In this document: positions 23,826 to 54,737 of the stretch, piece by piece
Layout: the number at the start of each line of letters is the position of its first letter
Numbering within the stretch: position 1 is the first letter of the stretch
From: Schmidtea polychroa
Taxonomy: Eukaryota
Assembly (NCBI GenBank): GCA_044892525.1
Contig: CM097886.1
Location: 77,996,001 to 78,060,000, forward strand
Direction of reading: 5' to 3'
Length of the DNA: 64,000 nt
Program-made: the position numbers and the translations under genes
Notes under the pieces: generated by a model
What the model was told of the DNA's origin: nothing
What the model saw: only the letters and a program-made list of their open reading frames with translations
The model's database searches: none

Positions 23826-24715
23826 CAGGGGTGCCCACTAATTTTTCTAGGAGAGCTACATTCACATCCAAAATGTGTATGCGATCTACTTTTTTAATAC
23901 TTACATAATATTTACCTACAATGCAATAAATTCATCACAATAAAACAAATATATGTCAAAATATGGAAAATTAAACTATATAACTATTTATTATAAAAAA
24001 ATGTAACTTAGGAAGATATCATTTTGAAGTGTGATTATTTCCATTTCAAGTATAGGGATATCCATTTTAAACAAAGTTGAAATTGAATCTGCAACAATTT
24101 CTGGTTTTATTTTTGGATTAAACGGAAAGGACATAAATGCAGCCACAATTTCAAGTTTCTTGAAGTCTTGAAAACGTCTCTCGAACTCTAAAACCAAAAT
24201 TTTGATCTGTTCCGCATATCTCGTAATATTAAAGTTGACATTTTCAGATTCTTTTAATTGTGACAACATATTTGGAAAATAACTTAAATTTTTGTCTTCT
24301 ATTTTGGTAATAAGTAAATGAAGCTTTTGTATAAATGCATTGATTGAACTTATCATATCGAATATCAATTTATCCTTACCTTGTAAGTCGAGATTTAATT
24401 CATTCAGAATTGCAGTAATATCTACTAAAAATGCCAAATCCAAGAGCCAAACATCATCTTCCAATTGCTTGAACTCATCACCTCTTGCGGCAAGGAACAA
24501 CTTAATCTCAGAAAGCAAATCTCTAAATCTTTGTAAGAATTTTCCTCTACTTAGCCACCTTACATCTGAATGCATCAGTAATTCAGCAGGACCTTCGCTA
24601 TTACTTTCTTCAATTTGTAATTTGAAAAGTCGTCTCTGAAGACTTCTTGCACGAATCGAGGTGAAGAGTGACATAATGTTCAGCACATCTGTCAGAGACA
24701 CATATGGACTTTTGG
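23826..24715 (-). mobile_element. hAT Buster/GTF2IRD2-like transposon, 3' fragment
   Basis: ORF 23991-24701 has LLMHSDVRWLSRGKFLQRF, WLLDLAFLVDIT, LNELNLDLQGK, EFERRFQDF; terminal CAGGGGTGCCC at 23826. Confidence 0.88.
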
Positions 24716-32679: not shown

Positions 32680-33534
32680 ATGTTCAAATATCAAGATAAA
32701 GAAAATGTATTAAATGATTTTCTATGTGGTGGAGCAGCAGCAATGATAAACATATGCATATTGTATCCATTTTATAAAACTATTTTCTTTCAGCAATTAG
32801 ATAATTTAACATGGAATCAAGCTGCTCTGAGATTGTTCAAAGAAGGACCGAACAATTTATATAGAGGATTATTACCTCCATTAATTCAAACTTCAGCTAC
32901 TAGATCAATAATGTTTGGTGGGTATGGGAAAACTAAATTAACTTTAGATAATAAAGAAATTATAAAAAATCCTATTATGAAAGTGCTTATATCAGCTATT
33001 TCTGCTGGGATTTTAGAGGCTATGATGATGCCATTTGAACGAGTTCAGGTTCTTTTACAAAATAAAATGTATAATGATAAATTTAAACATACATATCATA
33101 CATTTAAAGTTTTGGTTAGTAATCATGGATTTAAAGAGTTATATAGAGGATTTAGAGTTGTATTGCTTCGAAATTCTATTGGAAATGCAATCTATTTTAA
33201 CGCATGTGACAGATTTATTTCTAAATCTAAATTGATATTCAAACATAATGCTATTGCTTGTCATTTTAATAATTTCCTAATTGGTGGGATTTTGGGAGCC
33301 TGTATTAGTCTTTTTATTTATCCATTGAATGTTGTTAAAACCAGACAACAGAGTTCTATCGGTGGAACTTTTCAATCAGGAATAACTGTTGTTTGTAAAA
33401 TCTATTCAGAAAGAGGAAGATCTATTACTCAGTTATACAGAGGTTCTCCTGCGAATTGTGTGAGATCTCTTGTGTCTTGGGGTATTATAACAATGGCCAA
33501 TGAATTTTTGAGAGATAGTAAAATTTTTTTATAA
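32680..33534 (+). CDS. SLC25A51: Mitochondrial carrier, SLC25A51/MCART1-like (NAD+ transporter family), single exon, 284 aa from ATG 32680
   Basis: Three carrier repeats: DFLCGGAAAMINICILYPFYKTIFFQQ, LYRGLLPPL..SIMFG, MPFERVQVLLQ, YPLNVVKTRQQ, LYRG...RSLVSWGIITMANE. The ORF-track TTG start at 32578 is probably UTR. Confidence 0.88.
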   Translation: MFKYQDKENVLNDFLCGGAAAMINICILYPFYKTIFFQQLDNLTWNQAALRLFKEGPNNLYRGLLPPLIQTSATRSIMFGGYGKTKLTLDNKEIIKNPIMKVLISAISAGILEAMMMPFERVQVLLQNKMYNDKFKHTYHTFKVLVSNHGFKELYRGFRVVLLRNSIGNAIYFNACDRFISKSKLIFKHNAIACHFNNFLIGGILGACISLFIYPLNVVKTRQQSSIGGTFQSGITVVCKIYSERGRSITQLYRGSPANCVRSLVSWGIITMANEFLRDSKIFL

Positions 33535-36961: not shown

Positions 36962-39905
36962 TAGTCAAAGGCACGCTTTGAGTCAGAGTAAGAATTCTAA
37001 TTTTATCACTAACCCAATAACCCAACAATAATTATAATAATAATAACGTGTTTAACGATATTAATGATAGAGATAAATATAATTACAAATCTTATTCATT
37101 TCTAAAAGCTCTTTTCTCTACGTGTGGAAAAGTTGACGTATTCCTTGACAAAGTGTGATTACTTAATTGAATAAATCATAATTCCAATTTCGATGCGAAG
37201 CACATTAAAGGATCTTTAATTAGACATAATGAGAGACAAATTGGACTCAGAGTTAGATCTTCTATCGACAGTCCACCCGTCCACCCATGGTGCGTCAAAG
37301 CATCAACAGTTACTAAAAGGGTGCTTATTTTTTGTTGGCAGTCACTCACTTGGGATTTTACTAACACTGCTTAGAAATGTGTTTCAGGCGCAAAATAACA
37401 AGGTTATATGAGGTTACAACGGAAGCACTAAGTAGGCAACTTCTTATCAATAACCCACCTATTATTTACAAAAATTTTGAGTCTAAGTATATATTGGAAA
37501 ATTAAATACCGTGTTTTGCCTAATAAAAGTCATACTCCCAATACAAGCCCATTGTTCGTTTTTTAAAAAATAAATAATTACAAGCCCTACTCCTATTACA
37601 AATCCTATTTTAATTCATACACCATTTATACGTTTACTTTATTGTATTATTGTTTTTTATAATGATTTTTAAATGTCGTTGATTCAATATTCATTAAGTA
37701 GACATTTTTTAACCCATGAACGCACAGAAGAGTTCCAGAAAGGCTTATACAATAGATTATATGCTTAGAATCTTCAGTGAATCCCGTACATCCGGCATGA
37801 CCCTTGCAAAGTTTTATGCAAAAGTAAATCTTGATCTGCGAGTTGTTCGTCGTTGGAAAGCAGAGGAAGAGAATCTCCAATCGCTAAAGAATGCGGGGAG
37901 ACAGACCAGAGCTCAAGGCGGAGGAAGAAAATTGGTAATTTCTGACATTGAGGAACACATATTTGACTGGATTATCGAGCGCAGATCTAAAAGTTTAGTC
38001 GTAAAGCGTTCTGACATCCAAGAATATGCACTTAGATTGGCACAACAAAATTCTAGTAATCCCGAATCGAGTTTCTCCGCCTCTGGGAAGTGGTTGTCTG
38101 GCTTTATGAAACGATATGACCTCTCATTGAGGCGATCAACGACGCTATTCAAACTGTCCGATGATGATATAGTCGAGGGTACTCTGTCTTATAAAGCTTT
38201 TATTGATAGCTTGGATATATCAAAATATGATCCCGAATTTTGTATTTCAATGGATGAAACGGCCATTTTCTATGGTGAAAGTTCGCAGACAACCATTGAA
38301 ATGCGAGGAGCTTCATTAATAAGAGTTCCATCCACAGGTTATGAAAGTTGCCGACTAACTTGTATACTGGGTGTACGATTAAATGGAACCAAGATATCTC
38401 CCACAGCCATTATTAAGGGGAAAAAGGATACTGTTATAGTTAGGAATGGTTTACATATAATGGAGTCGAAGAAAGCATGGTCCACCCAGGACATTCTCAA
38501 AAAATGGATTGACATCAATTTCCCATTGGTGCTTAGGGGACAAAAAAGAGGTTTGCTAATTTGGGATTCGGCCTCTACGCATCGAGCTACCCAGATGAAA
38601 TCATTTTTGCAGACCAGAAACATTGATCAAGTAATGATTCCGTCGGGGATGACTGGTTATTTGCAACTTATGGATGTGGAATTTCTGGAATTTCATGCCA
38701 TATACGTTCCTGCCTGTCTTATCAAATTGGAAATACGTATCAAAGAATGTACGGTAGATTGCGTTCACAGAGTTCCGGAATATGAAAGTGGAAATAATTA
38801 TTTCGAGAGAATCCTGCTTTCAGGTGAAGTATACTATAATATGACACCAAATTCTCGACTAATTTACTGAAGCATTATATGGATATTTTCCGGGTAACGG
38901 AGAAGTCATTAAGTTCACAAAGACGACTCGATGAACGAATAGTGCGACGCCCTCAATCACTGTGTGAATTCTCAAACACTACTTTCATTTAGTTATACAT
39001 CTATCCTGTCGATCACTGTCTCGCTATCATTTCACTAGAATACTCTGTTTATATAATTTAGTCGCATCTTCAGCAATTGGACCCGTGAAGAAGCCTTCAC
39101 ATTTCGGCCCAATCTAGCTGCGTGATTGAAATACTCCATGTCCACCGGCTGAGCTCCCGAAGGCACATCACACCATGACATGGAGTATCTCAACTCCACG
39201 TTACTCAACAAATAAAAATTCATAAAAGATTTAATGCAATCAATAAAACAGAAATCTAGATAAAAATCATTTATTAATTCTATGATACTCAGACATGTAA
39301 ATTTTGTTAAACATTAAAAATTACTAAATGTGGAATCAAATGAAAAGTTGTTTAATAAAGAATTTACTATAATTCAGCCTTCATAATTACTTTAATGTAA
39401 ACTAAAATTCTAAACAAAAGTTCGGCTTACCAATATACTAGATGCTGAGCTGAGTCAAAAATTCAAATCGAATGTTCCTGAAAATTAGGCTGTTCGCTGT
39501 AAATCTGGATAGTTCTCAAATGTTGTCTCGGTTCCTCGTAGTTTTCTGTAAGTAGTTGCTGTCGTCGGTAAAGTGTTTGAGTTAACTGTGATCTATTGAA
39601 TGTTGAAATTAACGGTCTTTCTAATAAATTTGCTTACCTATTGAATGTTGAAATTAACGGTAAGTTTATGATTTTTATGTCTGCTTATATAGTAATTTTT
39701 GATGTATGCGGACCAATCAGAATTGAGTACCGCTTATTTTCTTAATTTAATTTATTTTTTTCCTGTTTTCTGGTTATTTTTCCCTCCTTTCTTATTTTTA
39801 TTATATTTTTTATTTATTTCTTTAATTTTCTCATTATTTGTTGCATTTTTCAGTACTTTGTTCGTCATTCTATTGTCCTATTTTAATTTTTCTTATTTTT
39901 ATTTT

Positions 39906-40945
39906 TGTTGGGGTTCAGTAGGAACCGGAAATAAACGTTCGAAATTAGATAATAAATAAAATAATAATTAATTACCAAAATTAGGATTAAAATAAAAATA
40001 GTATTTTAAAATTACCAAAAATAGAAATTAAATACTAAAATTAAAATGAAAACATAATTAGTAATAAATAATTACTAAAAATAGAATTGTAGGAATTATT
40101 TAAAATATATAATAAAAATAGTAATTAAACAATTACTATTAATAGAATTACGTAAAATAAATTTGTATAAATAGCAGATAAAAAATTAGATGAAGGGACG
40201 AAGATAGGAGTGAGAAAAAACCGCAGTGACTAAAATTAGGAACCAATTCTATTTATAGTAACGATCAAGTTTCATCAAGTGATAAGAATCGTATCGATTG
40301 AAAGAAAATTAGTTTCGTAAATTTTTGGGAATTTATTTCTGTGCACATAGACAGTTGGATTACAGAAATCGTGATAATTATTGGAAATATCAAATCGATA
40401 GTTAATTTGTGGAATAATTATTGAAACTCTCTTCAGTACTATTTAAGGAATATCAGTTAGTTTTATCAATATTTTAATTATTAATATTTGAATAATTGTA
40501 AAGGTATTTATAAAGGGTTTATTTGCTTTAAATAAATTTAGGGGATATCCTGACGTCAGCACGAATTTTGTGTTGTCTCGTTAGTAATATTTATTAAAAA
40601 GAATTAACCAATTTCTGGGTTAATTCTATAGCGTAAATTTTGGTGATTGTCCCGTTCTCTTTTCCTTTCACCTACATCGGGCTGTTGGCACATTTAGGGC
40701 CAGCCTTGATACTTAGTAACACTCTTCAGGGCGGTTTGAATAACCGTTTTCTATACTTAGAGAAAGCAGCGCGGTGTAACTATATTTATACATATTTAAA
40801 CGTGTAACTAACTTTTAATTGAAAATAAATATTTGAAACATATCTCTTATTTATTTATTTGATTACCTACGCGCATAAATTATTTACTTTGAGTCAGATA
40901 GAACATTTTTGTGTTAGTTCGAAGACATACCCATCGAACCTAACA
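39906..40945 (+). repeat. 5' LTR (1040 bp)
   Basis: TGTTGGGG...CCTAACA; matches 53698-54737 with six substitutions spotted by eye; contains palindromic TGACGTCA (40551-40558) and AATAAA near 40824. Confidence 0.97.
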
Positions 40946-40948
40946 TTT

Positions 40949-40966
40949 TGGTGAGCCCGACGTGAT
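40949..40966 (+). promoter_or_regulatory. Primer binding site complementary to tRNA-Trp 3' end
   Basis: TGGTGAGCCCGACGTGAT, 3 nt after the 5' LTR; its reverse complement ATCACGTCGGGCTCACCA is nearly identical to the animal tRNA-Trp 3' end (ATCACGTCGGGGTCACCA). Confidence 0.85.
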
Positions 40967-41044
40967 AAAATTATCAGCGGGTAGATATTGAATTAAAACA
41001 AAATAGCGTTAGGAACTAGAGCCAGAGTAAAACTGGAAAATCAA

Positions 41045-43696
41045 ATGGCAGAGGAAGCTAATGTAAATGCATTTGCCAGATATCCCGCTCTGCCCGTAAA
41101 GGCATTCAGCGGTGATCCGGGAGAATTCCCAGAGTTTATGTCTGAATATTATCAGATGGCCAAAGCATATGCCTATCCAGATAATATCATGATACAAAGG
41201 CTACCTATATATTTGAAGGGGCTGGCAAGAGAAAAATATAATGACATTATGGCATTACCAATTGCCCAAGTTCCAAAAACATGGGCTGAAATGAGAGAAC
41301 AAATGACTGCTCGAATATTGCCCGGAGATGCGGGAAGAATATTTAGACAACAATTTTATCACCGAAAACAGAATGCCAATGAACATGTAGGGGAATTTGC
41401 ACACCAGCTATCACTAATTGCTGAAAGAGCATTCGGACCAAAAACCACATGGGCAAAGCCCACAGAATTGTTAGTTAAGGATCAGTTATGGGCAGGACTT
41501 ACTCCTACAATGAGGAACGCTCTAATATTACATACTAGTGATGATTTTGATGAATTGACTCGGAAAGCTGTCGTAATTGAAAGCAGCTTGGAAAAGTCAA
41601 CCATGTTCCTCGTAAACAGTGAAAGAACACCCGTAGAATGTTTCAATTGCCATAGAAAAGGGCATATAGCGAAGGATTGTACCAGCAGGAAAATTATGGA
41701 CAATCGCAAAAGTATGCAATGCACCAAATGTGGACGGAATAACCATGGTGCGGAAAATTGTAGAGTACAGAATTTGCAATGCGAAAAATGTAAACGAAAG
41801 GGACATGTTGCTGCGGTCTGCAAGACTAGAAGTCCTCAGAACAGCAATAATTTTAGCACAATTAAAAGAGATGATGTAAATTCATCAGGAAAGATAAAAT
41901 GTCACGGATGTGGGAAATTCGGACATATGATGAGGTCATGTCCTCAGAACCAGAGTGGAAATACGAGTCAGTTCAATAAAAATACCGATAAGGGTAATGT
42001 GAACAAGTCTAAGACCACTTTCATGGTTAACCAGGATCAAGGGTTAACGTATTTGCAACAACTGGAAATGGAAATCCAGGAGGAAAAGAATAGGTTGGCT
42101 AGATTGACCGACCAAGAAGGCACCATCTTCATGGTAGAAGTTGGAAGAGATGAATATCTCAGAAAAAAGGACTCCGTTAGAGAGGACCTTCAGGAAACGG
42201 AATCAGAGGAGAGTTCCGATGATGAACCTAGTATGGCCACCATACTAAGCGAGTTCGATAGAACCTTGCCAGGGAAAGCAAAGGTAAAAGAAGGGTCGGA
42301 TACCCTAACAAAATGTTTAAAACTGGTGGATTCCAGATATGAGTACCAGCAGAAGCTGGCCAGACAATTGGGAAAATTGGGAGAAACAGAAATTAAAATT
42401 CACGAAATCGATACAGTAGTAAAACTGATATCGCAGGTCGAAGATGATCCAAAGTATCATAACGACACGTACAAAATCCTAAGGAAATTAGGAAAACTCT
42501 TGGAACATGAGTGGGATCTCCAAGATGCCCAGCTCAATATAAAACTCCCACAGGATAAAGAGTATAATCTCGATATAAATGTAAGAAGTCGAGCCGATAA
42601 ATTAAAGGAAACATTGACAAGTATTAAGCATCAAGGATATGACTTATACTTATGTGGAATAAAATTAGAAGCAAATCAAACACTTCTACAGAACGGGATA
42701 CTCCCAGGTAGAGTGACAAAGCTCACAGCAAAGAGAGCACAGAAGCCAGTAGCAGTAATGGATCAAGATAGCGTATTCTTGATTACTCAAATGGAAATAG
42801 AGAGATTGGAAGAAACCCAACAATTAACCCAGCGACTAGGGTTGGAATTGCAGAAATCTCCACGAGATGGAGAAACTATAAAGGAAATACTTGACTGGAT
42901 GTTAGTATTGCGTATACCAGTAGATTTGTTGGAAGCAATAATTCCACTTATACTACCAGTGGTAAAGGAAACAAGCCCATTCCAGACGCAAATTGAAGCT
43001 CTGATGAGGAAAAATGGGAAAGCTATCCGAAGTCAGCCTGATAGACAAGGCAACATTAATCTAGACGTGCGAATGATGGGAAAAGAACCATTAACAATGA
43101 TTTATAATTGCTATATCAAGGTTAAAATATTGAGGAGAGATGTAATTGCCACCGATCAAACTACAGGTATATTCCTGATAATGGTCCATGGCAGGCAGGT
43201 GGATGATGATGAATATTTAGTGGATGTGGGTTGTCTACCGCTGGCAACAACCACGGTAATGATCATCCCAGTAACTCCACCAGAGTCCCAGTGGTCATTA
43301 ATGAGACTGCCAGATATAGCAAACGAAATTGCGGAAGAGATTGAGGAAATAAGATTAGAGGAAATTAATCCCTGTCCAATGGTGGACATTGACGAGGAAG
43401 ATTACTTCTCAGAATACGTCAGATTAAATCCAGGAGAAACAAACATAGGAGCTACTACGTCACAAGCAGTAACAAATCTGGAGACTGAAAAACCTCCGGA
43501 GAAAGTGAAAAAAGATGCACGAGGACGTCCTAGAAAGGATCAAATGAAACCTCCACCCAAGGAGCAGTTAAATCCGGAAACGATCCGGAAAATTCAGTTA
43601 AAAACATTAGCAGGGATAGCTCAAGAAATGGACGACCAGGCGGAGATGAGACAACGTCAGAAAGGTCGTTATTGTGGCAACGTATACAAAAAATGA
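41045..43696 (+). CDS. gag: Extended Gag (883 aa): capsid-like domain, four CCHC zinc knuckles, ~550-aa unknown extension with AT-hook-like motif
   Basis: FSGDPGEFPEF, IYLKGLAREKY, KQNANEHVGEF (retrotransposon gag pattern); CFNCHRKGHIAKDC, CTKCGRNNHGAENC, CEKCKRKGHVAAVC, CHGCGKFGHMMRSC; RGRPRK at 43520-43537. Confidence 0.92.
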   Translation: MAEEANVNAFARYPALPVKAFSGDPGEFPEFMSEYYQMAKAYAYPDNIMIQRLPIYLKGLAREKYNDIMALPIAQVPKTWAEMREQMTARILPGDAGRIFRQQFYHRKQNANEHVGEFAHQLSLIAERAFGPKTTWAKPTELLVKDQLWAGLTPTMRNALILHTSDDFDELTRKAVVIESSLEKSTMFLVNSERTPVECFNCHRKGHIAKDCTSRKIMDNRKSMQCTKCGRNNHGAENCRVQNLQCEKCKRKGHVAAVCKTRSPQNSNNFSTIKRDDVNSSGKIKCHGCGKFGHMMRSCPQNQSGNTSQFNKNTDKGNVNKSKTTFMVNQDQGLTYLQQLEMEIQEEKNRLARLTDQEGTIFMVEVGRDEYLRKKDSVREDLQETESEESSDDEPSMATILSEFDRTLPGKAKVKEGSDTLTKCLKLVDSRYEYQQKLARQLGKLGETEIKIHEIDTVVKLISQVEDDPKYHNDTYKILRKLGKLLEHEWDLQDAQLNIKLPQDKEYNLDINVRSRADKLKETLTSIKHQGYDLYLCGIKLEANQTLLQNGILPGRVTKLTAKRAQKPVAVMDQDSVFLITQMEIERLEETQQLTQRLGLELQKSPRDGETIKEILDWMLVLRIPVDLLEAIIPLILPVVKETSPFQTQIEALMRKNGKAIRSQPDRQGNINLDVRMMGKEPLTMIYNCYIKVKILRRDVIATDQTTGIFLIMVHGRQVDDDEYLVDVGCLPLATTTVMIIPVTPPESQWSLMRLPDIANEIAEEIEEIRLEEINPCPMVDIDEEDYFSEYVRLNPGETNIGATTSQAVTNLETEKPPEKVKKDARGRPRKDQMKPPPKEQLNPETIRKIQLKTLAGIAQEMDDQAEMRQRQKGRYCGNVYKK

Positions 43697-46410
43697 TCGG
43701 GATTATCAGGCCCGAATGGAGAATTCCAAAAATCAAGGGAATCGAAGTAAAGAAAATAACAAAAGAGGTCAAGAAGACAATGGACAGAGTATCCAAAGAT
43801 GTATCAACAAGAGATACCCAGGAGGCCATAGAAGCATTCGTGCAGCAAGGGTTAACAAGAGGGAAAGTGGTAACATCTTTATCATTGTTAATCCAAAATG
43901 CCTTAGCCCGGATAGGGGACGATAAAAGGCTTATAGAACGAGAAATCGATCGAATAGTCGAAATGGTAGATTATTACCTAGAGGTATGGATGACCGTAAA
44001 CAAATTGTGGGAAAAGGAAATAATTCCAAAACCACGATTTGAAGTCGTAGAAGAAGCCATAAATAATGGTAGTCCAGGCACCGGAAACATGACAAGCATG
44101 ATCCTGATGTTCCTAGTGATGATGGGCATATTAAAACAAACAAATTCATTAACAGTATTTGACTGTGGAAATCCTAAACTATCTCGGGTATATTCGCTAG
44201 TAGATGCAATCGAGTGCAAAGAGGCGTATCCCGAGAAGGTTCATCAAGGGGAAAAGGTAGAATATTATGTCTACCAAGAGAGTGAATTTTATAGAACCAC
44301 GATAAAGGAATGTAGAGTTCAGAGAGCTACGTTCGAATATTATTGCGGTAGTAATAGCTATTCTGCTTTTCTATCCGCAACATTAATACCAAGGCCGGTA
44401 AACATAATGCCCGAAGATTGCTTAGATGCATTTCGAAAAGGAAGCATGAGGATAGACAACGAGGTATCAATCTCAGCAGAAATAGGGAAAACATTGGGAA
44501 TAACAATCACCCGAGGAGGAACAATTGCCTCAGATGGAACCTGCGAAGGTAGAAAGAAAATTCGCGGTAGCAATCTGGTTTCCTATGTAGTAGACATAGA
44601 AGATTACTCAGTGGAGCTACGAGAATATGAGGGAACATTCGATGTGGCCACAGGAAAATTAATGGCACATCCGCAATGCAATGCCAAGTTCGGTAGTTGT
44701 AAAACGGGAACCACTACGTTAATTTACGAACAAATGAGAGATCATTGTGAGTTGGCTTTCCTCAAGAAAATTCCTTTTAGAAAATTAAATGGAACTAAAT
44801 ATCGGGACTCCCAGAATCCAGAAAAGGTTTGGGATAAAGCAAAAACGCTGAAGAAAATCAACAAACAAGAGAAGGAAGATATCGGAGAGGAAAACACACC
44901 TCTAGTGTTAATATCGGAAGACAAGACGGAAGCAATTCGATTTGTCCGAAAAGATAAAAAGACTAAATGTGGGAAAAGAGTATACGAGACGAACTATAAA
45001 GGAATTTTCCTGTCAAGAGAATATATCCGGAATTCCAAGGTCCTACATGTAAAGGATATCAAAATCACGAATTATATAAATAATAAGGTAGTATATTTAT
45101 ATCATGATCTGCAGGGACAAATGCAAGATATGTATCAAGAAGTGATACTAAACGATTGTAAGCTAAATCGTGAAATAGTCCGAAATAGATTAGCAATATC
45201 TATCGTTAACCCAGAGTTGGTTACTCCAATGTTATTGGAAGATGGAATGTTTGGCAGAATCATGGGAGAAGCTATATATAGCTATGAGTGTAAACCAGTT
45301 GAAGTACAATTAGCCAGATTTAATCAATGCACTCTAGAACTGCCAGTATCTTACCAAGGAAAATTGAGATTTGTTATGCCAGTAACCAGAAAGTTACTTG
45401 AGGAAAACGCTAAACCTCAACCAGCTATATGCAACCCGGCAATATCACCATTATACAAAATAAATGACATGTGGATATCTCTGCCGGAAAGAAAACCATC
45501 TACACAACGGGTAGAGACCTTGGAGGTGACTAAATTAAAAGATAATCTGGAATTCAAGTCACTAGATGAATTAGCAAAAGGAGGGATCTATACTCCCGAC
45601 GATATCGAGGAAGCAAGGAGGACATTGCTATTCCCACAAATCAGAGACAGAGGTATCACGGAAATTATAAGAACAATTTATCATGATAATTTGATACGAC
45701 CAGATTACAATTTATTATTTGGACCGGAACACTATAAAGAAGCAGCAAAGAACGTAATGATGAAAATATGGGGACGATTTACCAATTTTGGTATTTTCGT
45801 CGCGGGATGTTCAGGAATTTACGCAATATTTGTAATTTTAAAGCTGATAATTACACAACTGATGTCAACATATAGCATATTCAAAATTGGAGGATGGTCA
45901 TGGAAACTGCTATTAGGACTATGTCCTATGTGTGCAGAGTTTGCATTATTCAAACATCACAGAAAAGAAATTAAAGAAATTAGACAGAAACACTTGGTCA
46001 AACATGAAGTAATTGGAACAGAAATGGAGGAGTATTCGAGTTATCGGGACGATAACAATTCAAAGGGAGGAGGTAATGGAGGCTCTCGTGAGACATCTTC
46101 AAGATCAAATCAATCACGAAAACAGAACTACAACAAAAAACCGAATCAGCAACAAAGAAAATCGAGATTCAAGGAATATCTTCCTCCATATGACCAATCA
46201 AAGGAAATCTATGTGAGAAAACAGTCCTCAGAAGGAGAATATGACAGTTCCGACCAAAAATTCGACATAAGGTCACCCAGATTCAAGAGAAGTCCAAGAT
46301 ATGTACAATTGCCAACTTTGAGGAGTTTACCATCCGCACCAAACGAAGGGCGGGAACATTCCAGGGAAACAACACTCAGAACAGGACGACACCAATGGAA
46401 AATCGGTTAA
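43672..46410 (+). CDS. env: Env-like glycoprotein, chuvirus/gB-like (class III fusogen) family; frame open from 43534
   Basis: Signal-like segment MTSMILMFLVMMGILKQTNS (44089-44148) then LTVFDC..P...YSLVDAIEC, ECRVQR..FEYYCG, EDC, GTIASDGTCEG, LNDCKL, EGMFGRIMGEAIYSYECKPVEV, CTLELPV, RFVMPVTRKL, CNPAISPLYKINDMW; TM region IWGRFTNFGIFVAGCSGIYAIFVIL (about 45766-45870) and a second hydrophobic stretch. Confidence 0.8.
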   Translation: MWQRIQKMIGIIRPEWRIPKIKGIEVKKITKEVKKTMDRVSKDVSTRDTQEAIEAFVQQGLTRGKVVTSLSLLIQNALARIGDDKRLIEREIDRIVEMVDYYLEVWMTVNKLWEKEIIPKPRFEVVEEAINNGSPGTGNMTSMILMFLVMMGILKQTNSLTVFDCGNPKLSRVYSLVDAIECKEAYPEKVHQGEKVEYYVYQESEFYRTTIKECRVQRATFEYYCGSNSYSAFLSATLIPRPVNIMPEDCLDAFRKGSMRIDNEVSISAEIGKTLGITITRGGTIASDGTCEGRKKIRGSNLVSYVVDIEDYSVELREYEGTFDVATGKLMAHPQCNAKFGSCKTGTTTLIYEQMRDHCELAFLKKIPFRKLNGTKYRDSQNPEKVWDKAKTLKKINKQEKEDIGEENTPLVLISEDKTEAIRFVRKDKKTKCGKRVYETNYKGIFLSREYIRNSKVLHVKDIKITNYINNKVVYLYHDLQGQMQDMYQEVILNDCKLNREIVRNRLAISIVNPELVTPMLLEDGMFGRIMGEAIYSYECKPVEVQLARFNQCTLELPVSYQGKLRFVMPVTRKLLEENAKPQPAICNPAISPLYKINDMWISLPERKPSTQRVETLEVTKLKDNLEFKSLDELAKGGIYTPDDIEEARRTLLFPQIRDRGITEIIRTIYHDNLIRPDYNLLFGPEHYKEAAKNVMMKIWGRFTNFGIFVAGCSGIYAIFVILKLIITQLMSTYSIFKIGGWSWKLLLGLCPMCAEFALFKHHRKEIKEIRQKHLVKHEVIGTEMEEYSSYRDDNNSKGGGNGGSRETSSRSNQSRKQNYNKKPNQQQRKSRFKEYLPPYDQSKEIYVRKQSSEGEYDSSDQKFDIRSPRFKRSPRYVQLPTLRSLPSAPNEGREHSRETTLRTGRHQWKIG

Positions 46411-46428
46411 GATACCATATTTAATAAT

Positions 46429-49017
46429 TTGACATGCTCGACATTGCCAGAAGTACCTAAAGTGCACTATCCAAAGGAAGCGTTAGAGTCAATTAAAGCT
46501 AAATTCAAAGAGTATAATCCTCAACTGAGTGATCCTGAATTACTGGAAGCAGAACAAACGAGGGCAAATACAATAGGTATATCGCACGATACTATCTTGA
46601 TGGTCAACAACCCAGTGAACTTGGATAAAAAGCCAATGATAAAAATAAGAGTGAACCGACATACAGTTAATGCGGTGATAGACTCAGGAGCAGATGGTAC
46701 CATAATTGAAGCTAAATTGTTAAACCATCATGAACTGCAATCGCTAAAACCGGCAGGAGTAAAATTAACAGGAGCAAACGGATCCTCATTAAACGTAATA
46801 GGGTCATTATCATGCCAGATTAAGCTTTGTGACCAGGAGCTCCATCACGACATCATAGTGATGAGAAGTCTCCCAGCCGAATGTCTATTGGGTATGGACA
46901 TCCTAAAAAGACTACGAGGAGTAGTATTCGACTGTGCTTCTGGATTGTTAATCCGAGCGAGAGGTAAAAAGAGAAAAATTTACAATGATGATACAGCTTA
47001 TATTGATCATACAACTATCATACCACCCAGAGCAGAAACTGTATGCTTTGTAGCTACAAGCAATAATTGGGAAGGTGAAGTTGTATTCGAACCAGATGAA
47101 AAGTTTTCGGAGAAATACAACATACCAGTTACTCATAGCGTAGGCTTAATAGTCAATGGCAGAATACCAATCAGGGTAGCCAATCTGGACATTAAACCAC
47201 TTTACTTATATCCAGATACCAGAGTGGGCAGAATCTGGAAACAAAACGAACCACAAGCCACGGGAGAAGGGTCGATACTCACCGTAAAGGCAGAAGAAAG
47301 AGATCCAGACATTGAGTACTATGATGCACCTACAGCAAACAGCAAAGTGCTAACTAGAAAAGAAAATATTCAAGTAAATATGTTATTGAGGAAATATGAC
47401 CAGGTATTCGCGAAACATGAATACGATCTGGGAAAGACAAACTTGTTAGAACATGAGATTGTTCTCACCAATACAAAACCTATAAAGTTGAGACCATACC
47501 GTATTCCATTCAGTCTGGAGGAATCAGTAGATAAACAGGTGAAACTGATGTTAAAACATGGCATAATCAGGCATAGTAAATCACCATATCAATCACCAAT
47601 GATAGTGGTGGCCAAGAAGGATGGATCAGTACGATTATGTAACGACTATCGCATGGTTAACGAAGCAACATGCAAAGATAGCCATCCATTGCCATTGTTA
47701 GATTATATCTATGGACGCATGAGAGACGCTAGGTTCTTCTCAGTAATGGACGCCCAAAAGGGATTTTATCAAATTAAGTTAAAAGATGAGACTATACCAA
47801 TAACAGCGTTCTCTACGAGTATGGGTCATTACGAATATAACGTAATGCCATTTGGACTCACAGGAGCTCCAGCCACATTTCAAAGAGCAATGAATTTGAT
47901 GCTCATGGATGTACACCATGCGATGGTATACATTGACGACGTCATCGTATTCTCGCCAGATTTGGAAAAACACTTGGAACATTTGGAAGATGTGTTCAAG
48001 AGGTTGATAAATGCCAACATGAAAGTGAAACCCACCAAATGTAAATGGGCTGAACCGGAAGTGGTATATGTTGGCCATATCATATCACGAGACGGGGTTA
48101 AACCCGATCCAGCTAATGTCGAAAAGGTAAAGAATTTCCCGGAGCCTAAAACCGTTAAACATATCAAAGGGTTTTTAGGTCTAGTTGGATACTACAGAAA
48201 ATTCATTAGAAACTTTTCGGTTATAGCTTTTCCACTCACGCAGTTAGAAGGCAAAAATGTCAAATTTGTGTGGGGAACAGAACAGCAAGAAGCATTTGAT
48301 ATGCTCAAGGAAAAACTCATCAAGCCACCTATATTGCGATTTCCAGACTTTGAGAGACAATTTTTGGTTATGACAGATGCCAGCACTCGGGGCATAGGTG
48401 CTGTGTTAGGTCAGAGAGATGACCTAGGAGATGAGTATGCAATTGCATACGCTAGCAGAGGATTAAAACCGCACGAAAGAAACTACGCAGTAATAGAACT
48501 AGAAGCTTTAGCAATTGTGTATGCTATAACCCAGTTTAGGACTTATCTATGGGGTCGAAAGATCATAGTGTATACCGATCATAGACCATTACAGTGGTTG
48601 ACGAAACACACAATGGATACATCACAACTGGTCAGATGGGCATTAATTTTACAGCCATATGACATAGAAATTCATTATAGAAAAGGAGATCATAATGGAA
48701 ATGCAGACGCTTTATCGAGAATGGACCAGGAGGAGGAAGCAGAAGATGTGAAGGAAGGACGTCTTGAAGGGACTATCTTCACACTGACTCGAGAAGCCAA
48801 CCGGCTAGCTGATTTAATGGAGGCACAAAAATCTGACGAAGAAATCAATGTTATTCGTCAAGCCCTGGAAGCGAAATACGTGCCCACAGAATTCGCGAAA
48901 TATTGGGAAAAGAATAAAGACAAATTTGTGCTGGAAGAGGGATTAGTGAAATACTCAGATGTAAGAGATAACGTTATAATGGTTCCTAAGAAATACCGTG
49001 AAGCACTCATGTTGTAG
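46429..49017 (+). CDS. pol: Pol part 1: aspartic protease, dUTPase-like spacer domain, reverse transcriptase, RNase H; ends at TAG 49015-49017 within the integrase N-terminal region
   Basis: VIDSGAD; RLCNDYR, GFYQI, YNVMPFGLTGAPATFQ, YIDD; MTDASTRGIGAVL, ELEALAI, YTDHRPL, NADALSR. Confidence 0.96.
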   Translation: MTCSTLPEVPKVHYPKEALESIKAKFKEYNPQLSDPELLEAEQTRANTIGISHDTILMVNNPVNLDKKPMIKIRVNRHTVNAVIDSGADGTIIEAKLLNHHELQSLKPAGVKLTGANGSSLNVIGSLSCQIKLCDQELHHDIIVMRSLPAECLLGMDILKRLRGVVFDCASGLLIRARGKKRKIYNDDTAYIDHTTIIPPRAETVCFVATSNNWEGEVVFEPDEKFSEKYNIPVTHSVGLIVNGRIPIRVANLDIKPLYLYPDTRVGRIWKQNEPQATGEGSILTVKAEERDPDIEYYDAPTANSKVLTRKENIQVNMLLRKYDQVFAKHEYDLGKTNLLEHEIVLTNTKPIKLRPYRIPFSLEESVDKQVKLMLKHGIIRHSKSPYQSPMIVVAKKDGSVRLCNDYRMVNEATCKDSHPLPLLDYIYGRMRDARFFSVMDAQKGFYQIKLKDETIPITAFSTSMGHYEYNVMPFGLTGAPATFQRAMNLMLMDVHHAMVYIDDVIVFSPDLEKHLEHLEDVFKRLINANMKVKPTKCKWAEPEVVYVGHIISRDGVKPDPANVEKVKNFPEPKTVKHIKGFLGLVGYYRKFIRNFSVIAFPLTQLEGKNVKFVWGTEQQEAFDMLKEKLIKPPILRFPDFERQFLVMTDASTRGIGAVLGQRDDLGDEYAIAYASRGLKPHERNYAVIELEALAIVYAITQFRTYLWGRKIIVYTDHRPLQWLTKHTMDTSQLVRWALILQPYDIEIHYRKGDHNGNADALSRMDQEEEAEDVKEGRLEGTIFTLTREANRLADLMEAQKSDEEINVIRQALEAKYVPTEFAKYWEKNKDKFVLEEGLVKYSDVRDNVIMVPKKYREALML

Positions 49018-51105
49018 TATCACGATGGAGCCTTAGGAGGCCACCTGTCATCTAGAAAAACATTGTCAAGGTTAAAACAGAAATACTTTTGGCCCGGTAT
49101 GAAATCAGATGTTAAAACCTGGTGTCAGACATGTAAGATCTGTATCACCAGAAGAAATACCGGAAAGAAGCCACACGTACCAATGAAGCCGATGCCAGTA
49201 CCATCTACACCTATGGAAATGACGGCAATGGACGTTTTGGGACCATTCAAAGAATCTAATAGCGGAAACAAATACATATTAGTTTTCTGCAACTACTTGA
49301 CTAAGTGGCCAGAGGCCTACCCGATGCCTAATCACAAAGCTGATACAATAGCTAGAATTTTCGTTGAACAAATTGTCTTTAGGTATGGAGTACCTACAAA
49401 GCTATTAACGGATCGGGGAGCTGATTTCATGAGTAATCTGCTCAAAGGAATAAATGATTATTTTGGAGTTCTAAAGTTGAACACTTCCCCATATCACCCA
49501 CAGACGGATGGGCTAGTAGAGCGATTTAATGGAACATTAGCTAATATGTTAGCATCATATGTAAATTCAGGGCAAACGGATTGGGACATCCACATTCCAT
49601 CCTGTTTATTTGCATACAGGAATGCAGTACACGAAGGAACAGGTGAGACACCATTTTACTTAATGTATCTGAGGCAAAGCAAAATGCCAGTAGATCTGTT
49701 GTTCTTCCCTAAAGCAACACAGTATTTAGATCAGGAAGATTATCTAATGGAAATGAGGGAAAGAATGCAGGAAGCATGGGCTAGAGCAGGTCTCAGTATA
49801 AAATATAATCAGGAGGCATCCAAAGATTATCATGACCGAAAAGCCAAGGATCATGGTATATTGGTTGGAGACCAGGTGATGTTGGAAAGTCATTATAACA
49901 AGAAAGGCTTATCACCAAAACTCATGCGAAATTTCAAAGGGCCATATGAGGTATTGAGAACCACGGATACAAATCTCATATTACAATTGTTGGCCAACAG
50001 AAAAGCAGAACCAATAATGGTGCATGCTAATCGGTGTAAAAAGTGCGAAATCTCAACAAAGGGAGCCTCTGGAAATCCAAAAGTAAAAGCACCAGAGAAA
50101 CAAGTGAAACCAAACACTACCGAAGAACCACAAGAACACCGATACCCATTGAGATCAAGGGGTGTTCCAAAATCGGTAACCATTTTGTTAATAATAAGCT
50201 GTATGATGACTTTGGCAATGGCAAAAAGGGATAGAAAGGCATACTTTCAGCCTATGGCGATGCAAGTGAAACATTTACACTTTATAAGAACGTATAACGG
50301 AATTAGCATTCTCACAACGTGCGATAATGCCACAAAATTCAGTTTACATTTCTACAACAAGTACTTGCGGGTCCGCCAACTCGATTCAGAAGAAAAAGAG
50401 TGGGATTTATATGATTTAAAAGCCGAGACGGATTATAAACTGCATATTGCAGCATCAAAGTTATATCAGAGTGGTTGGTATACCTATCACGTATCTAATT
50501 GGATCCTACGGACGGCAGATTTCACAAATCGCATATCGATATCCTACGAGAAGGAGAAAGTAAAGTTTAGCCAGCAAATTAACAGGGAGGAGAAGGTGAA
50601 AATCAGCATTCTAGACGGATCTACCACGAGAGGAACATTATGGTTAGATCAGAACTCCCCCTCCCAAGAAATGTATCTAAATCAGTCCGTAGAATATTCG
50701 GTTCTAGTTATATACTATAGTCCGAGGAAACGGGAGGACGATAGGTGGTTCGAGGTATTTGAGGAGATATTACCTCTGAGACAACCTGTTATAACGAAAA
50801 CACCACCAAAAGTCGTCAAGGAGAACATGGTGATACATCCCGCAATGTGGCAACATCTTAGACAGTTGCCACCTATCCAACAAATATCTTGCCAAACGCC
50901 CCCAAATCTGACAAACTGTTGTGACTGTAATGCCATCACGAACTTTAATGTTGGATATATTCTGAAAATACCCATAGGGGTATGGATTACGGTGTCGGCC
51001 GTACTATCGCTAGTAACTACACTAATAGCTATGGGTATTTGGACCAAGCTATATTTTAGACAAGCCATAAGGGCCTACGATGGAGTACTGATGTCGCAAT
51101 TATGA
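49018..51105 (+). CDS. pol: Pol part 2: integrase (same frame, after the stop) fused C-terminally to a signal peptide + FN3-like ectodomain + TM protein
   Basis: YHDGALGGH...CQTCKIC zinc finger, MDVLGPF, TDRGADF, SPYHPQTDGLVERFN, KGPY; integrase-type end RYPLRSR (50140-50160); then VTILLIISCMMTLAMA, LYDLKAETDYKLHIAA, and TM IPIGVWITVSAVLSLVTTLIAMGIW (about 50968-51043). Confidence 0.9.
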   Translation, partial: YHDGALGGHLSSRKTLSRLKQKYFWPGMKSDVKTWCQTCKICITRRNTGKKPHVPMKPMPVPSTPMEMTAMDVLGPFKESNSGNKYILVFCNYLTKWPEAYPMPNHKADTIARIFVEQIVFRYGVPTKLLTDRGADFMSNLLKGINDYFGVLKLNTSPYHPQTDGLVERFNGTLANMLASYVNSGQTDWDIHIPSCLFAYRNAVHEGTGETPFYLMYLRQSKMPVDLLFFPKATQYLDQEDYLMEMRERMQEAWARAGLSIKYNQEASKDYHDRKAKDHGILVGDQVMLESHYNKKGLSPKLMRNFKGPYEVLRTTDTNLILQLLANRKAEPIMVHANRCKKCEISTKGASGNPKVKAPEKQVKPNTTEEPQEHRYPLRSRGVPKSVTILLIISCMMTLAMAKRDRKAYFQPMAMQVKHLHFIRTYNGISILTTCDNATKFSLHFYNKYLRVRQLDSEEKEWDLYDLKAETDYKLHIAASKLYQSGWYTYHVSNWILRTADFTNRISISYEKEKVKFSQQINREEKVKISILDGSTTRGTLWLDQNSPSQEMYLNQSVEYSVLVIYYSPRKREDDRWFEVFEEILPLRQPVITKTPPKVVKENMVIHPAMWQHLRQLPPIQQISCQTPPNLTNCCDCNAITNFNVGYILKIPIGVWITVSAVLSLVTTLIAMGIWTKLYFRQAIRAYDGVLMSQL

Positions 51106-51228
51106 CAATTACAGACTCCCCCGAGGGAAAAATCATATATAAATATTTATATATATCTTAAAATCTATATTTACGTAGAGCTCCAGGTAGCATTAAAATT
51201 CAGCATATGTAGATCTTTTATAAGACTC

Positions 51229-53391
51229 ATGCATATCTTTTTAGCCTATTATGGCATATCAGTATATCTGATATTATGGTTAATGATTTTTATTTCAGGA
51301 ATGCAGAGCCACCCAATATCCCAATATCAAGGAAGACATAGCATTATACGTGCTACAACCTTACTAAAAGAAAAACTTATTTATAAAAACCTGGAGAAGC
51401 AGGTTATGGAGCAAAGTAGAAAAGGCCAAAGGCACTGGTTTTACGGACATTGTTCAGGCATACCCAATAATTTTAAATTTGACGAGGCCCCAAAGCGTCA
51501 AATGATCATCTCAAGAATCCCGGGTAAGCATAATGGTAGTTTTAGGCTTACCGATGTCATGCTTGAGTTTGGCAGACATAGTCTGACCAACCACCTGTGG
51601 ATACACGCCATTAACAAACCATTTACGGTTTATGTTCCTGGCGCCACAAACCCCATTTTGCTGCAAAAGCACACAACCGTCGAGATAGAAAATGGGGATG
51701 GAAGGGAAAAGAACATCTCACTGTTATGTGAAGGTATAGATACCATCATAGCAATGGAAATTCTGGAACCTCACAGAGAAACACAAACAAGATGGGTTAA
51801 TGACCCAAACTGGACATATAATGTCAACGATAACGACATTAAAACATTTAAGTCTTTCGTTAGACAGCGTTTGAACCCTAGACAAGAGGATAACCTCACC
51901 ATTTTCGTAGCAGCTCACTACGCTACACTACGACAATTCCTGAAACCGGCAATCGTGGCCATCTCGATCTCACACTTCAATGGTGATCTAATACTCAACA
52001 CGAGAGTTACCCCCAGAGCACAGGTCAAACATTACCAATCGCATGCGCATGGTATGACCGAGAAACAAATAACAGGACAGTTCGACGGAGAAGACTGTGC
52101 CGAAAGAATTAGAAAAATCTGCGATGGGAAGATCATCGTGGGATTGCTAGTAAAGGACCTATTAGAAGTAATCAGATTCCCAATGCAGCGCGCACTCGGA
52201 ATTCGTGAGTTAGGCGCAGCTAAATGCCTCGAAAGTAGGGAACTAAAGAAATGCAACGGGTATTACCGTTTGGCATATCTAGCAAAAGCAGTCACCGGTA
52301 AAGAGGCACATCACTTCTCGGACCTACAAACGGAGAATGATGTCACAACCATTAAGGAGATTTACGACAATTTACGAGACATCTGGGTTGATGACATTTC
52401 AACAGACACCCGGAAAGAGGTGGTGTCTTCACAAATAAAGCAGATGGAACCCGGAACCTCAAGCAGGCAGAAACCTCTAGCTATGGAGAGCTATGTGAAA
52501 GAAGATATCCCCAGGTCAAAGTTGTTGAAAATAGTGGAAGAAGATTCCTTGTCGCCGCCAGCCATTTCAATTGCTGATGAAGACGACTATGCCACTTGTG
52601 AGAGTGCAGACGATAACTGCCTCCAAGTCACCCTTACCAATGACGGTAGAGTGGTGAATTCGGCTAAAATGGAAATAGACAAACCACAGCCAGCAGAAAA
52701 ATTAGTTGAACGGGTCACCAAGATCCTGAAAGCATTGGCCCCGTTGGGTGAACCCAAACAAGGAGCAGAAGGAGGAACGTTACCCCAAGCTGTAGCACCA
52801 TTACTTAAGCTACAAGATTTGAAGTTTAAAAAGAAAACAACGGAGAAACTCCCCCAGAAAGAGGACAAGGAGAAAAATGTCCCTATCTCCGCAAAAAGGA
52901 AAAAGGAGATTCCTAAGAGTACGAAAAAGAAAATGCCTAGGATATCCATCCAGGATGAGGATGACGATCTCCTCGAAACCCACTATCAGCCACCAGATCC
53001 TGCGTTGACCAAGATATTGGCAACAAAGAGTGAACCCACGATTGCAGGAGAACCGATCGTCGTGAAGGAAGGCGAGTTCGTCGGAAGGGGCAACTCAATC
53101 AAAATACGGGAAGATCTCGACAGAGAAGATCCTAGTTGGTGGCAGAGACCCGACAGCAAATGGAAACCGCGTATCAAGGAATACGACGGAGGCCCAATCC
53201 ATGAAGTAGCCGTATCCAATTTCCCCGATTACGGAGTATTGGAGGCTAATGAGGGCTCATATATCATCTCCTCAATTGTGTACAAAGAGGTAAGTACACG
53301 GGAGACTTTGGTGGTCAGTTACAGACCTGACATTGTAGAACAAAGGATCCGTAACGAAAGTGCCAAGGTCATGAAAAGGAGAAAATACTAG
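51229..53391 (+). CDS. Accessory ORF4 (probably 696 aa from ATG 51301) with DEDDh/REX4-ISG20-like exonuclease fold, catalytic residues apparently altered
   Basis: Segment 51898-52375 follows the REX4/ISG20 pattern (AISISHFNGDLILNTRVTP, VKHY...HGMT, GKIIVG, IRE, RLAYLAKAVTG, ENDVTTIKEIY). Long stop-free ORF inside the element before the PPT. Confidence 0.7.
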   Translation: MHIFLAYYGISVYLILWLMIFISGMQSHPISQYQGRHSIIRATTLLKEKLIYKNLEKQVMEQSRKGQRHWFYGHCSGIPNNFKFDEAPKRQMIISRIPGKHNGSFRLTDVMLEFGRHSLTNHLWIHAINKPFTVYVPGATNPILLQKHTTVEIENGDGREKNISLLCEGIDTIIAMEILEPHRETQTRWVNDPNWTYNVNDNDIKTFKSFVRQRLNPRQEDNLTIFVAAHYATLRQFLKPAIVAISISHFNGDLILNTRVTPRAQVKHYQSHAHGMTEKQITGQFDGEDCAERIRKICDGKIIVGLLVKDLLEVIRFPMQRALGIRELGAAKCLESRELKKCNGYYRLAYLAKAVTGKEAHHFSDLQTENDVTTIKEIYDNLRDIWVDDISTDTRKEVVSSQIKQMEPGTSSRQKPLAMESYVKEDIPRSKLLKIVEEDSLSPPAISIADEDDYATCESADDNCLQVTLTNDGRVVNSAKMEIDKPQPAEKLVERVTKILKALAPLGEPKQGAEGGTLPQAVAPLLKLQDLKFKKKTTEKLPQKEDKEKNVPISAKRKKEIPKSTKKKMPRISIQDEDDDLLETHYQPPDPALTKILATKSEPTIAGEPIVVKEGEFVGRGNSIKIREDLDREDPSWWQRPDSKWKPRIKEYDGGPIHEVAVSNFPDYGVLEANEGSYIISSIVYKEVSTRETLVVSYRPDIVEQRIRNESAKVMKRRKY

Positions 53392-53685
53392 CAATTCGGC
53401 TATGTGTTCAATGGACCTAGCAATTTGCTATACGTCCTCAATCCCAACGCCTTCGACAACTCAATCCAATCCAGATATTCAAATTGATAGACATTATGAA
53501 CAACATTTGATTAATCTGATTCTTGATTTTGTTTAACAATTTTTGATTATTTTGATTTTGACTTTGATTGCTTTATATATATATTTTAATCAGTTGATTC
53601 ATTTTATTTTTATTTTTATTTTTTATGTATCTGCTGCAAATTGTCTTACCTTTACCGCTTTAATTTTCGGGACGAAAATCTTGTT

Positions 53686-53695
53686 AGGGGGAAGA
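53686..53695 (+). other. Polypurine tract
   Basis: AGGGGGAAGA two bases before the 3' LTR start at 53698. Confidence 0.85.
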
Positions 53696-53697
53696 CA

Positions 53698-54737
53698 TGT
53701 TGGGGTTCAGTAGGAACCGGAAATAAACGTTCGAAATTAGATAATAAATAAAATAATAATTAATTACCAAAATTAGGATTAAAATAAAAATAGTATTTTA
53801 AAATTACCAAAAATAGAAATTAAATACTAAAATTAAAATGAAAACATAATTAGTAATAAATAATTACTAAAAATAGAATTGTAGGAATTATTTAAAATAT
53901 ATAATAAAAATAGTAATTAAACAATTACTATTAATAGAATTACGTAAAATAAATTTGTATAAATAGCAGATAAAAAATTAGATGAAGGGACGAAGATAGG
54001 AGTGAGAAAAAACCGCAGTGATTAAAATTAGGAACCAATTCTATTTATAGTAACGATCAAGTTTCGTCAAGTGATAAGAATCGTATCGATTGAAAGAAAA
54101 TTAGTTTCGTAAATTTTTGGGAATTTATTTCTGTGCACATAGACAGTTGGATTACAGAAATCGTGATAATTATTGGAAATATCAAATCGATAGTTAATTT
54201 GTGGAATAATTATTAAAACTCTCTTCAGTACTATTTAAGGAATATCAGTTAGTTTTATCAATATTTTAATTATTAATATTTGAATAATTGTAAAGGTATT
54301 TATAAAGGGTTTATTTGCTTTAAATAAATTTAGGGGATATCCTGACGTCAGCACGAATTTTGTGTTGTCTCGTTAGTAATATTTATTAAAAAGAATTAAC
54401 CAATTTCTGGGTTAATTCTATAGCGTAAATTTTGGTGATTGTCCCGTTCTCTTTTCCTTTCACCTACATCGGGCTGTTGGCGCATTTAGGGCCAGCCTTG
54501 ATACTTAGTAACACTCTTCAGGGCGGTTTGAATAACCGTTTTCTATACTTAGAGAAAGCAGCGCGGTGTAACTATATTTATACATATTTAAACGTGTAAC
54601 TAACTTTTAATTGAAAATAAATATTGGAAACATATCTCTTATTTATTTATTTGATTACCTACGCGCATAAATTATTTACTTGGAGTCAGATAGAACATTT
54701 TTGTGTTAGTTCGAAGACATACCCATCGAACCTAACA
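53698..54737 (+). repeat. 3' LTR (1040 bp)
   Basis: Direct repeat of 39906-40945. Confidence 0.97.

Follow-up and report, generated by a model that had tools for sequence, protein, structure and literature searches.

The locus described here raises the question of whether an LTR element with a fusogen-like gene ahead of pol, another membrane protein after it and a nuclease-like open frame at its 3' end is a new type of element, as an earlier note on this DNA had proposed, and of what its reading frames encode in the family as a whole. The window, i.e. the whole stretch of 64,000 nucleotides analysed, has a G+C content of about 30%. The element spans positions 39906..54737 (14,832 nt) on the + strand, the strand of all features given below, and this copy contains five long open frames. 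It is bounded by LTRs of 1,040 nt of the form TG...CA (5' LTR, 39906..40945; 3' LTR, 53698..54737). The two LTRs differ at only six positions and the insertion is therefore young. Sequence inspection identified an 18-nt PBS-like stretch starting with TGG, 3 nt past the LTR (40949..40966), which may match tRNA-Trp. A polypurine tract lies just before the 3' LTR (53686..53695), and the intact LTRs, PBS and PPT of the earlier note are confirmed. The candidate 4-nt target duplication is uninformative because it is made of a T run, both flanks being T runs.

Paired TG...CA LTRs, a PBS-like stretch and a polypurine tract are hallmarks of Ty3/gypsy (Metaviridae) elements. Pfam and profile searches revealed an aspartic protease (PR), a reverse transcriptase (RT; YIDD at 47929) and RNase H (RH) at 46639..48660 and an integrase (IN) with H2C2, core and GPY module at 49018..50157; the PR-RT-RH-IN order and the GPY module fit Ty3/gypsy. 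Ty3 is the nearest solved relative of the RT (E 2.4e-87), the next other group following at E 4.1e-57. Gag (41045..41951) consists of a capsid domain (PF03732, E 0.0011, below cut-off) and four CCHC knuckles (PF00098, E 1e-8, and cysteine spacing). Between Gag and pol lies the ectodomain of a class III (gB/chuvirus-type) fusion glycoprotein (44149..45777; dN/dS 0.06), matched by PF24664 (Monjiviricetes fusion glycoprotein) at E 3.9e-89, in agreement with the fusogen that had been placed ahead of pol. Internal signal peptide 1 (44089..44148) precedes it, recognised by hydropathy and found at the same place in the related sequences L036 and P0003 described below; a transmembrane segment (45778-45882) and a cytoplasmic tail follow (together 45778..46407), the tail being continuous with pol in the family. 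No solved relative of this env was found by sequence search, and a word-based protein search for long env relatives returned one protein only, a weak negative. A BEL/Pao-type element with a chuvirus glycoprotein is ruled out, as pol is not of the BEL/Pao type and env does not lie after pol.

On sequence features, the position of a gB/class III env, with its signal and its anchor, after gag and before pol fits the GAG-ENV-POL group of HSV/gB-type errantiviruses described from Platyhelminthes, Nematoda and Bryozoa (Chary and Hayashi 2026, PMC13524379). Like the present element, those have a Ty3/gypsy pol, a gB-type env between gag and pol and many recent copies. They include six elements from Schmidtea mediterranea, for which the part of that paper covered gives no LTR or PBS; its survey of 1,512 elements did not seek other arrangements. 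Compared by eye only, domain I-II of our env is nearest to Smed_errantivirus_4 and that of L036 and L037 is close to Smed_errantivirus_1. This resemblance suggests a host of planarian type. An in-frame env between gag and pol was also described for planarian Burro elements (Arkhipova and Yushenova 2019, PMC6431247). The earlier note had put forward a new type of element by virtue of this order, unless the arrangement was already catalogued; the order is published for flatworms in both papers, so that headline does not stand. The element belongs to Ty3/gypsy and falls within the published group of GAG-ENV-POL elements with a gB-type env.

Analysis of the region between Gag and env revealed two imperfect, internally repeated units of about 175 amino acids (42230..43291), also present in the sister family represented by L037, each with a helical part and a part that resembles ubiquitin-like sequence. 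Directly before the env signal peptide lies a degenerate Bcl-2-like domain (43702..44070), missed by the earlier note, for which the evidence is weak but consistent. Pfam gave no PF00452 match in the window's own segment; in L037 and L036 the match was found at E 0.019 and 0.0036, both below the Pfam cut-off. A profile of three sequences gave a best E of 0.0015, with Bcl-2 proteins making up 59 of the 60 among the matches listed. The env signal peptide may occupy the place of the Bcl-2 tail anchor. Burro (GYPSM1) likewise encodes one polyprotein with Gag, a BCL2-like motif, an in-frame env and then PR-RT-RH-IN (PMC6431247), the Bcl-2 evidence here being weak and strongest in the sister families. 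Burro, however, exceeds 30 kb and has a 4,873-aa ORF with MATH, BIR and ankyrin domains according to the section available, whereas our element has 14,832 nt and none of those domains by Pfam. Burro also has a Ubi/SUMO-like motif before BCL2 and a dUTPase-like one between PR and RT; here look-alike segments are present at both places, and searches matched neither a ubiquitin fold in the repeats nor a dUTPase between PR and RT. Neither a DEDDh ORF nor a further membrane protein behind integrase is mentioned in the Burro section of PMC6431247. The Bcl-2-like domain before env makes the element a compact relative of Burro, and a relative is what it is, not a member. The locus as a whole is probably best explained as a recently mobile, envelope-bearing Ty3/gypsy element of this compact, Burro-related kind.

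Non-canonical ERVs of nematodes reportedly have a continuous ORF and accessory ORFs. They resemble the present element in having env before pol (Sacco et al. 2022, as cited in PMC13524379) and differ from it in their nematode host; they are not known to encode a further membrane protein.

Comparison of copies was carried out in a genome of 781 Mb with four very large contigs. The env stretch gave 388 candidates genome-wide; all 40 scored match at full length with 96-100% identity, and ten of these 40, the window's own locus included, are at least 98% identical. The 3' 10 kb was compared in 20 of the 39 other scored copies, taken from the top of the list, and stretches of 5.1 kb around env were compared for 11 of the other copies. 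Pol, the second membrane protein (MP2) and the nuclease-like frame (ORF5) follow in the same order in 18 of the 20 copies, the remaining two ceasing to match inside pol. The 3' modules are thus no one-off insertions, and they occur in other families too. The breaks between the frames of the window copy proved to be its own. Near the gag/env border the frame differs from that of all 11 other copies (frameshift at approximately 43600..43700), seven of the 11 having one stop-free frame across all 1,700 compared codons. The stop between env and pol (46408..46410) is open in 20 of 20 other copies, and the stop between RH and IN (49015..49017) in all 18 copies covering the site. The stop at 51103 before ORF5 is the only break common to the copies (18/18). 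The damage to the window copy is therefore private at all three places, and what the family encodes is a single chain. On the same ground we reject five separate ORFs that a programmed frameshift or a readthrough event would connect at the three borders (gag/env, env/pol and RH/IN); of the five coding modules of the earlier note the contents stand (gag, fusogen, PR-RT-RH-IN, membrane protein and nuclease-like ORF), but the division into five genes does not.

By coordinate arithmetic, the family frame has about 3,350 codons, with Gag, env, pol and MP2 in one chain. Its order is Gag, two repeats, Bcl-2-like domain, signal 1, gB-type fusogen, anchor 1, tail, PR-RT-RH-IN, signal 2, MP2 ectodomain and anchor 2. 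All 12 tested segments, including MP2 and ORF5, are under purifying selection, with a pooled pairwise dN/dS of 0.05-0.22 from pairs that are not independent of one another. Hydropathy analysis revealed four hydrophobic segments, arranged alike in the window and in L036; P0003 has the first three, and pol has none.

According to membrane topology rules, this chain would likely thread the ER membrane four times, which would place both ectodomains in the lumen and Gag and Pol in the cytosol. Signal peptidase would then free the fusogen and MP2, and the element's protease would cut the cytosolic parts at a recurring motif. A five-residue motif does occur at seven domain borders, all in cytosolic parts, the pattern having been written from those same sites. 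Pol would enter the particle attached to the tail of the fusogen and not as Gag-Pol, and the chain would yield one MP2 for every fusogen. A one-to-one ratio of Gag to Pol is unusual, and this speaks for another reading, in which the single frame is real, Pol is made mostly from a spliced RNA that skips env, as an ordinary Gag-Pol, and the membrane-threaded precursor is minor. Against it, no stop interrupts the env tail ahead of pol and selection on it is purifying (dN/dS 0.13), all 20 copies as well as sister families and P0003 preserve the continuous frame, and a candidate protease site with the motif lies directly before PR. We therefore regard Pol made in this way as improbable. The threaded layout offers a testable route for the loading of Pol without Gag-Pol.

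As far as is known, a retrovirus or errantivirus has a single env. The membrane protein encoded after integrase here (MP2, 50161..51102) consists of signal peptide 2 (50161-50223), an ectodomain with stalk of about 240 residues (50224-50949), one C-terminal anchor (50950-51045) and a short tail, as judged by hydropathy. The claim that a different membrane protein fills the usual env slot holds for the protein, but no separate env-slot gene exists: MP2 forms the in-frame C-terminus of integrase. Its ectodomain is probably an Ig/FN3-like beta-sandwich; every comparison made points to such a fold, each of them weakly. ESM Atlas features place FN3 proteins nearest to MP2 of both the window and the sister-family copy L033, both below the recognition threshold. 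A model built from three sequences is poor (pLDDT 42.6), and its residues 113-208 compare with Ig-like sandwiches at Z up to 8.6. MP2 has no Pfam match and no solved relative by sequence, and a word-based search with the MP2 alignment found nothing, a weak negative. Relatedness of the window's MP2 to the MP2s of the sister families is marginal (11.0 bits; none of 1,000 shuffles reached that, the best being 9.9). The ectodomain has a dN/dS of 0.17, and no diversifying selection on MP2 was seen in the dN/dS comparison of copies.

Related elements of the same genome carry the same arrangement. PF24664 gave 2,581 candidates in the genome, and 68 loci were scored. In the large sister family, env lies in an open frame of at least 3,200 amino acids at no fewer than 13 of these loci, and at least 46 of the 68 have one of the 108 scored MP2 matches within 9 kb downstream. 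The spacing between env and MP2 in these 46 is 4,931-5,010 nt at 40 loci, exactly 2,100 nt at five and 2,089 nt at one. The five 2,100-nt loci are shorter than usual by 2,904 nt, a multiple of three; as their sequence reads, they represent an amplified derivative that has lost most of pol and keeps env and MP2 in frame. L036 and L037 are internally deleted copies of another family with gag, env, MP2 and an ORF5 with full catalytic motifs; L036 represents a second, independent in-frame pol deletion. L033 has an integrase end, a signal peptide, an ectodomain longer than the window's and an anchor, and internal repeats in this ectodomain did not exceed those of shuffles. P0003, a distant polyprotein of 2,974 amino acids (env 34% and RT 54% identical to the window), has the order Gag, signal, gB-type env, anchor, pol, second signal and Ig domain (PF13927, E 1.5e-5, below cut-off); hydropathy showed no clear second anchor, and no relatedness between the window's MP2 and this Ig domain was detectable. 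The continuity of the frame from env into pol is found in the sister families and in P0003 as well. The MP2 slot is thus occupied in three families of this genome, and in P0003 by an Ig domain; the slot after integrase is common to the lineages and its cargo may differ.

Two functions of MP2 were weighed. We give a little short of an even chance to the division of labour proposed in the earlier note, in which MP2 sits on the particle surface and attaches to the target cell, and fusion is left to the class III protein. The other function, which we hold tentatively, is that of a host-cell surface modulator, i.e. a superinfection block, a receptor decoy or a mimic of adhesion or signalling, as a further domain captured from the host besides the Bcl-2-like one. 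The nearest, though weak, feature matches of MP2 are single-pass FN3 proteins of hosts (FNDC5/9/10 and cytokine receptors), the cargo of the slot varies by lineage (Ig domain in P0003, longer ectodomain in L033) and the element bears other host-modulating domains. Binding and fusion are achieved by one protein in the case of class III fusogens like VSV G and GP64, which also favours a modulator; the one-to-one production of MP2 with the fusogen from a shared chain and its retention with env in pol-deleted copies of two families count against it. If MP2 is a surface protein of the particle, a second, selected protein made one-to-one with the fusogen would bear on the triggering of class III fusogens and on the spread of retroelements between the cells of planarians, animals whose stem cells depend on transposon control.

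ORF5 (51301..53391) comprises a cupin-like double-stranded beta-helix (51301-51777), an ISG20/REXO4-like DEDDh domain (51895-52395) and a low-complexity tail. The window's ORF5 has no Pfam match, and a word-based protein search with it found nothing, a weak negative. Phmmer identified 79 relatives at E up to 0.001; RNase_T (PF00929) was matched by 24 of 53 ORF5 homologues scanned at E up to 0.01. One relative is named RNA exonuclease 4, and nine of ten looked up have no useful name. Model and alignment were built with 42 of the 79 relatives (43 rows). The model has a pLDDT of 91.6, with residues 199-365 matching ISG20 (Z 18.8, rmsd 2.7, 161 aligned) and residues 1-159 folding into a double-stranded beta-helix (Z 10.9 against a prolyl hydroxylase). 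An AlkB or 2OG-Fe(II) oxygenase (demethylase) identity of the N-terminal domain was rejected: a single histidine is conserved and the HxD...H triad is lacking. The D-E-D-H-D catalytic set is complete in 25 of the 43 aligned rows; the window's ORF5 keeps only the last D, and an active nuclease is rejected here as four of the five catalytic residues are absent. A host-defence modulator, as proposed in the earlier note, is a possible role of ORF5, whose nuclease site is degenerate in this family. Because the catalytic residues are lost and yet dN/dS in the nuclease domain is 0.09, ORF5 in the window is a maintained pseudo-nuclease. A tree of ORF5 made with a quick method (46 rows) requires at least three changes on its starred branches for the loss of the active site, the window's row lying inside no starred set; L036 and L037, of a sister family, keep the full set.

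The loss of these residues, and the lack of ORF5 before the next LTR-like start in one sister-family copy (L033), could suggest that neither MP2 nor ORF5 has a function, both being passengers or nested insertions. Both have a dN/dS of 0.08-0.19, both are carried by 18 of 20 copies and ORF5 has its 79 relatives; purifying selection already largely refutes such passengers, and we consider them very improbable.

The way in which ORF5 is reached was analysed at the shared stop. A TGA in CAR-YYA context is followed by an open, in-frame linker of 65 codons (51103..51300) in 18 of 18 copies. In tobacco mosaic virus (TMV), CAR-YYA is by itself sufficient for readthrough, according to the part of PMC2194720 covered. 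Suppression of the pol-env stop in soybean SIRE1 is similar to our case in the in-frame stop before a 3' ORF and in CAR-YYA. The downstream ORF of SIRE1 is env-like and belongs to a copia element, whereas here a pseudo-nuclease follows a membrane protein. The linker has 195 nt (198 in six of the 18 copies) and is in frame with both neighbours, the other frames holding 2-12 stops; the length variant is the only one and preserves the frame. The 18 copies are 91-99% alike and for this reason are not independent tests of the signal. In the window, CAR-YYA follows 17 of 8,351 stop triplets (0.2%), and shuffled linkers are open in 0.4-0.6%. The linker ends in a splice-acceptor-like AG (51297-51298). 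A signal peptide at the N-terminus of ORF5 (51229-51300) is doubtful, since homologues start at 51301 and the stretch is A+T-rich linker.

ORF5 might instead be made only from spliced RNA (cis or leader trans-spliced) starting at 51301, with CAR-YYA and the open linker arising by chance. The acceptor-like AG three bases before the ATG at 51301 is present in 18 of 18 copies and the ATG itself in 17, L036 and L037 have a similar AG-ATG context, the closest homologues begin where the window has this ATG, and the TGA-CAR-YYA signal is absent in three sister families. The joint chance of hexamer (0.2%) and open linker (0.4-0.6%) is small, though noticed post hoc, and the sole length variant of the linker (6/18 copies) is in frame; both tell against splicing alone, which we rate as a real possibility, somewhat on the doubtful side. 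Of four runs compared as contigs, which cannot show level or ends, the three presumed to be RNA had no joint among the matches listed. Readthrough and splicing may both operate. We give even chances to an ORF5 that TGA readthrough, spliced RNA or both supply in smaller amounts and that shields the element's RNA, without catalysis, as an RNA-binding or decoy protein.

A 3' accessory 3'-5' exonuclease in an LTR element is also known from Juno and Vesta of bdelloid rotifers (Rodriguez et al. 2017, PMC5408684). Their ORF3, in the text available, is an intact DEDDy (RNase D-like) enzyme, whereas ORF5 is of the DEDDh (ISG20/REXO4-like) type, fused to a cupin domain and degenerate. The portion of PMC3985635 covered held nothing on retroelement DEDDh genes. 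The main text of PMC13524379, as far as covered, is free of the terms fibronectin, immunoglobulin, exonuclease, accessory and polyprotein and of any post-integrase membrane protein or ORF5; as it does not mention the post-integrase region, a check of this slot could cover all of its 1,512 elements. Nothing in the literature searched describes a membrane protein behind integrase or an ORF of the cupin-DEDDh kind; Repbase, figures or online sequence files may annotate them. MP2 within the polyprotein, the pseudo-nuclease ORF5 with candidate readthrough and the pol-less derivatives keeping both surface proteins appear to be new.

In its most far-reaching form, which we consider speculative and rather unlikely, this would be a widespread invertebrate LTR lineage, active in planarian tissue, that forms enveloped particles and whose one membrane-threaded polyprotein yields a class III fusogen and an Ig-fold attachment protein in equal amounts, with Pol packaged via the fusogen tail and a readthrough-tethered pseudo-ISG20 acting as RNA shield, and hence the first two-protein entry system in a reverse-transcribing element. 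The cupin-DEDDh family, with its full active site in 25 of 43 aligned sequences and its 79 relatives without names, represents an unstudied accessory gene. An intact ORF5 relative used as query gave 1,226 candidates in this genome, and both of the two loci inspected lie in env-bearing elements.

Comparison of the window element with the copies fetched from the S. polychroa genome (L013-L032) revealed that identity to the window differs module by module within single copies. The second membrane protein (MP2; window 50161-51102) showed an identity of 0.92 alongside 0.99 for env, and the LTR (window 53698-54737) an identity of approximately 0.80 in its second half. Because module identities differ within single copies, these sequences suggest that subfamilies recombined, swapping MP2 and LTR variants.

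Env and MP2 were retained, with most of pol lost in frame, at five genome loci and in an internally deleted sister-family copy (L036:1874-6175). These pol-less derivatives are non-autonomous, and in-frame pol loss with env and MP2 kept has at least two separate origins. One of the pol-less forms is amplified in the genome.

Genome-wide, 1,226 candidate ORFs of the cupin-DEDDh type represented by ORF5 were found, 84 of which were scored; env-bearing elements were the setting of both loci read (two of two, out of the 1,226 candidates). In the sister-family locus L033, the roughly 3.4 kb from the polyprotein stop to the next LTR-like start (L033:1463-4900) contain no long ORF, whereas ORF5 occupies this position in other families.

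On inspection by eye, the protease-RT interval (window 46966-47265) resembles a degenerate dUTPase fold, reminiscent of the dUTPase-like segment of Burro; it matched nothing in Pfam or PDB.

Elsewhere in the window, a Tc5/pogo-like DDE transposase ORF (37713-38870; PF03221, PF03184) lies just upstream of the element. A hAT-like transposase is split over three frames (55252-57873) and is accompanied by inverted subterminal repeats of 21 nt (55252-55793), and decayed gypsy pol and hAT-like transposase fragments occupy 2348-5249, 20587-21210 and 23991-28052. Two ORFs are host-like, presumably encoding an iron-sulfur cluster assembly (IscA-like) protein (18328-18816) and a mitochondrial carrier-like protein (32542-33534), the latter intronless across 330 codons.
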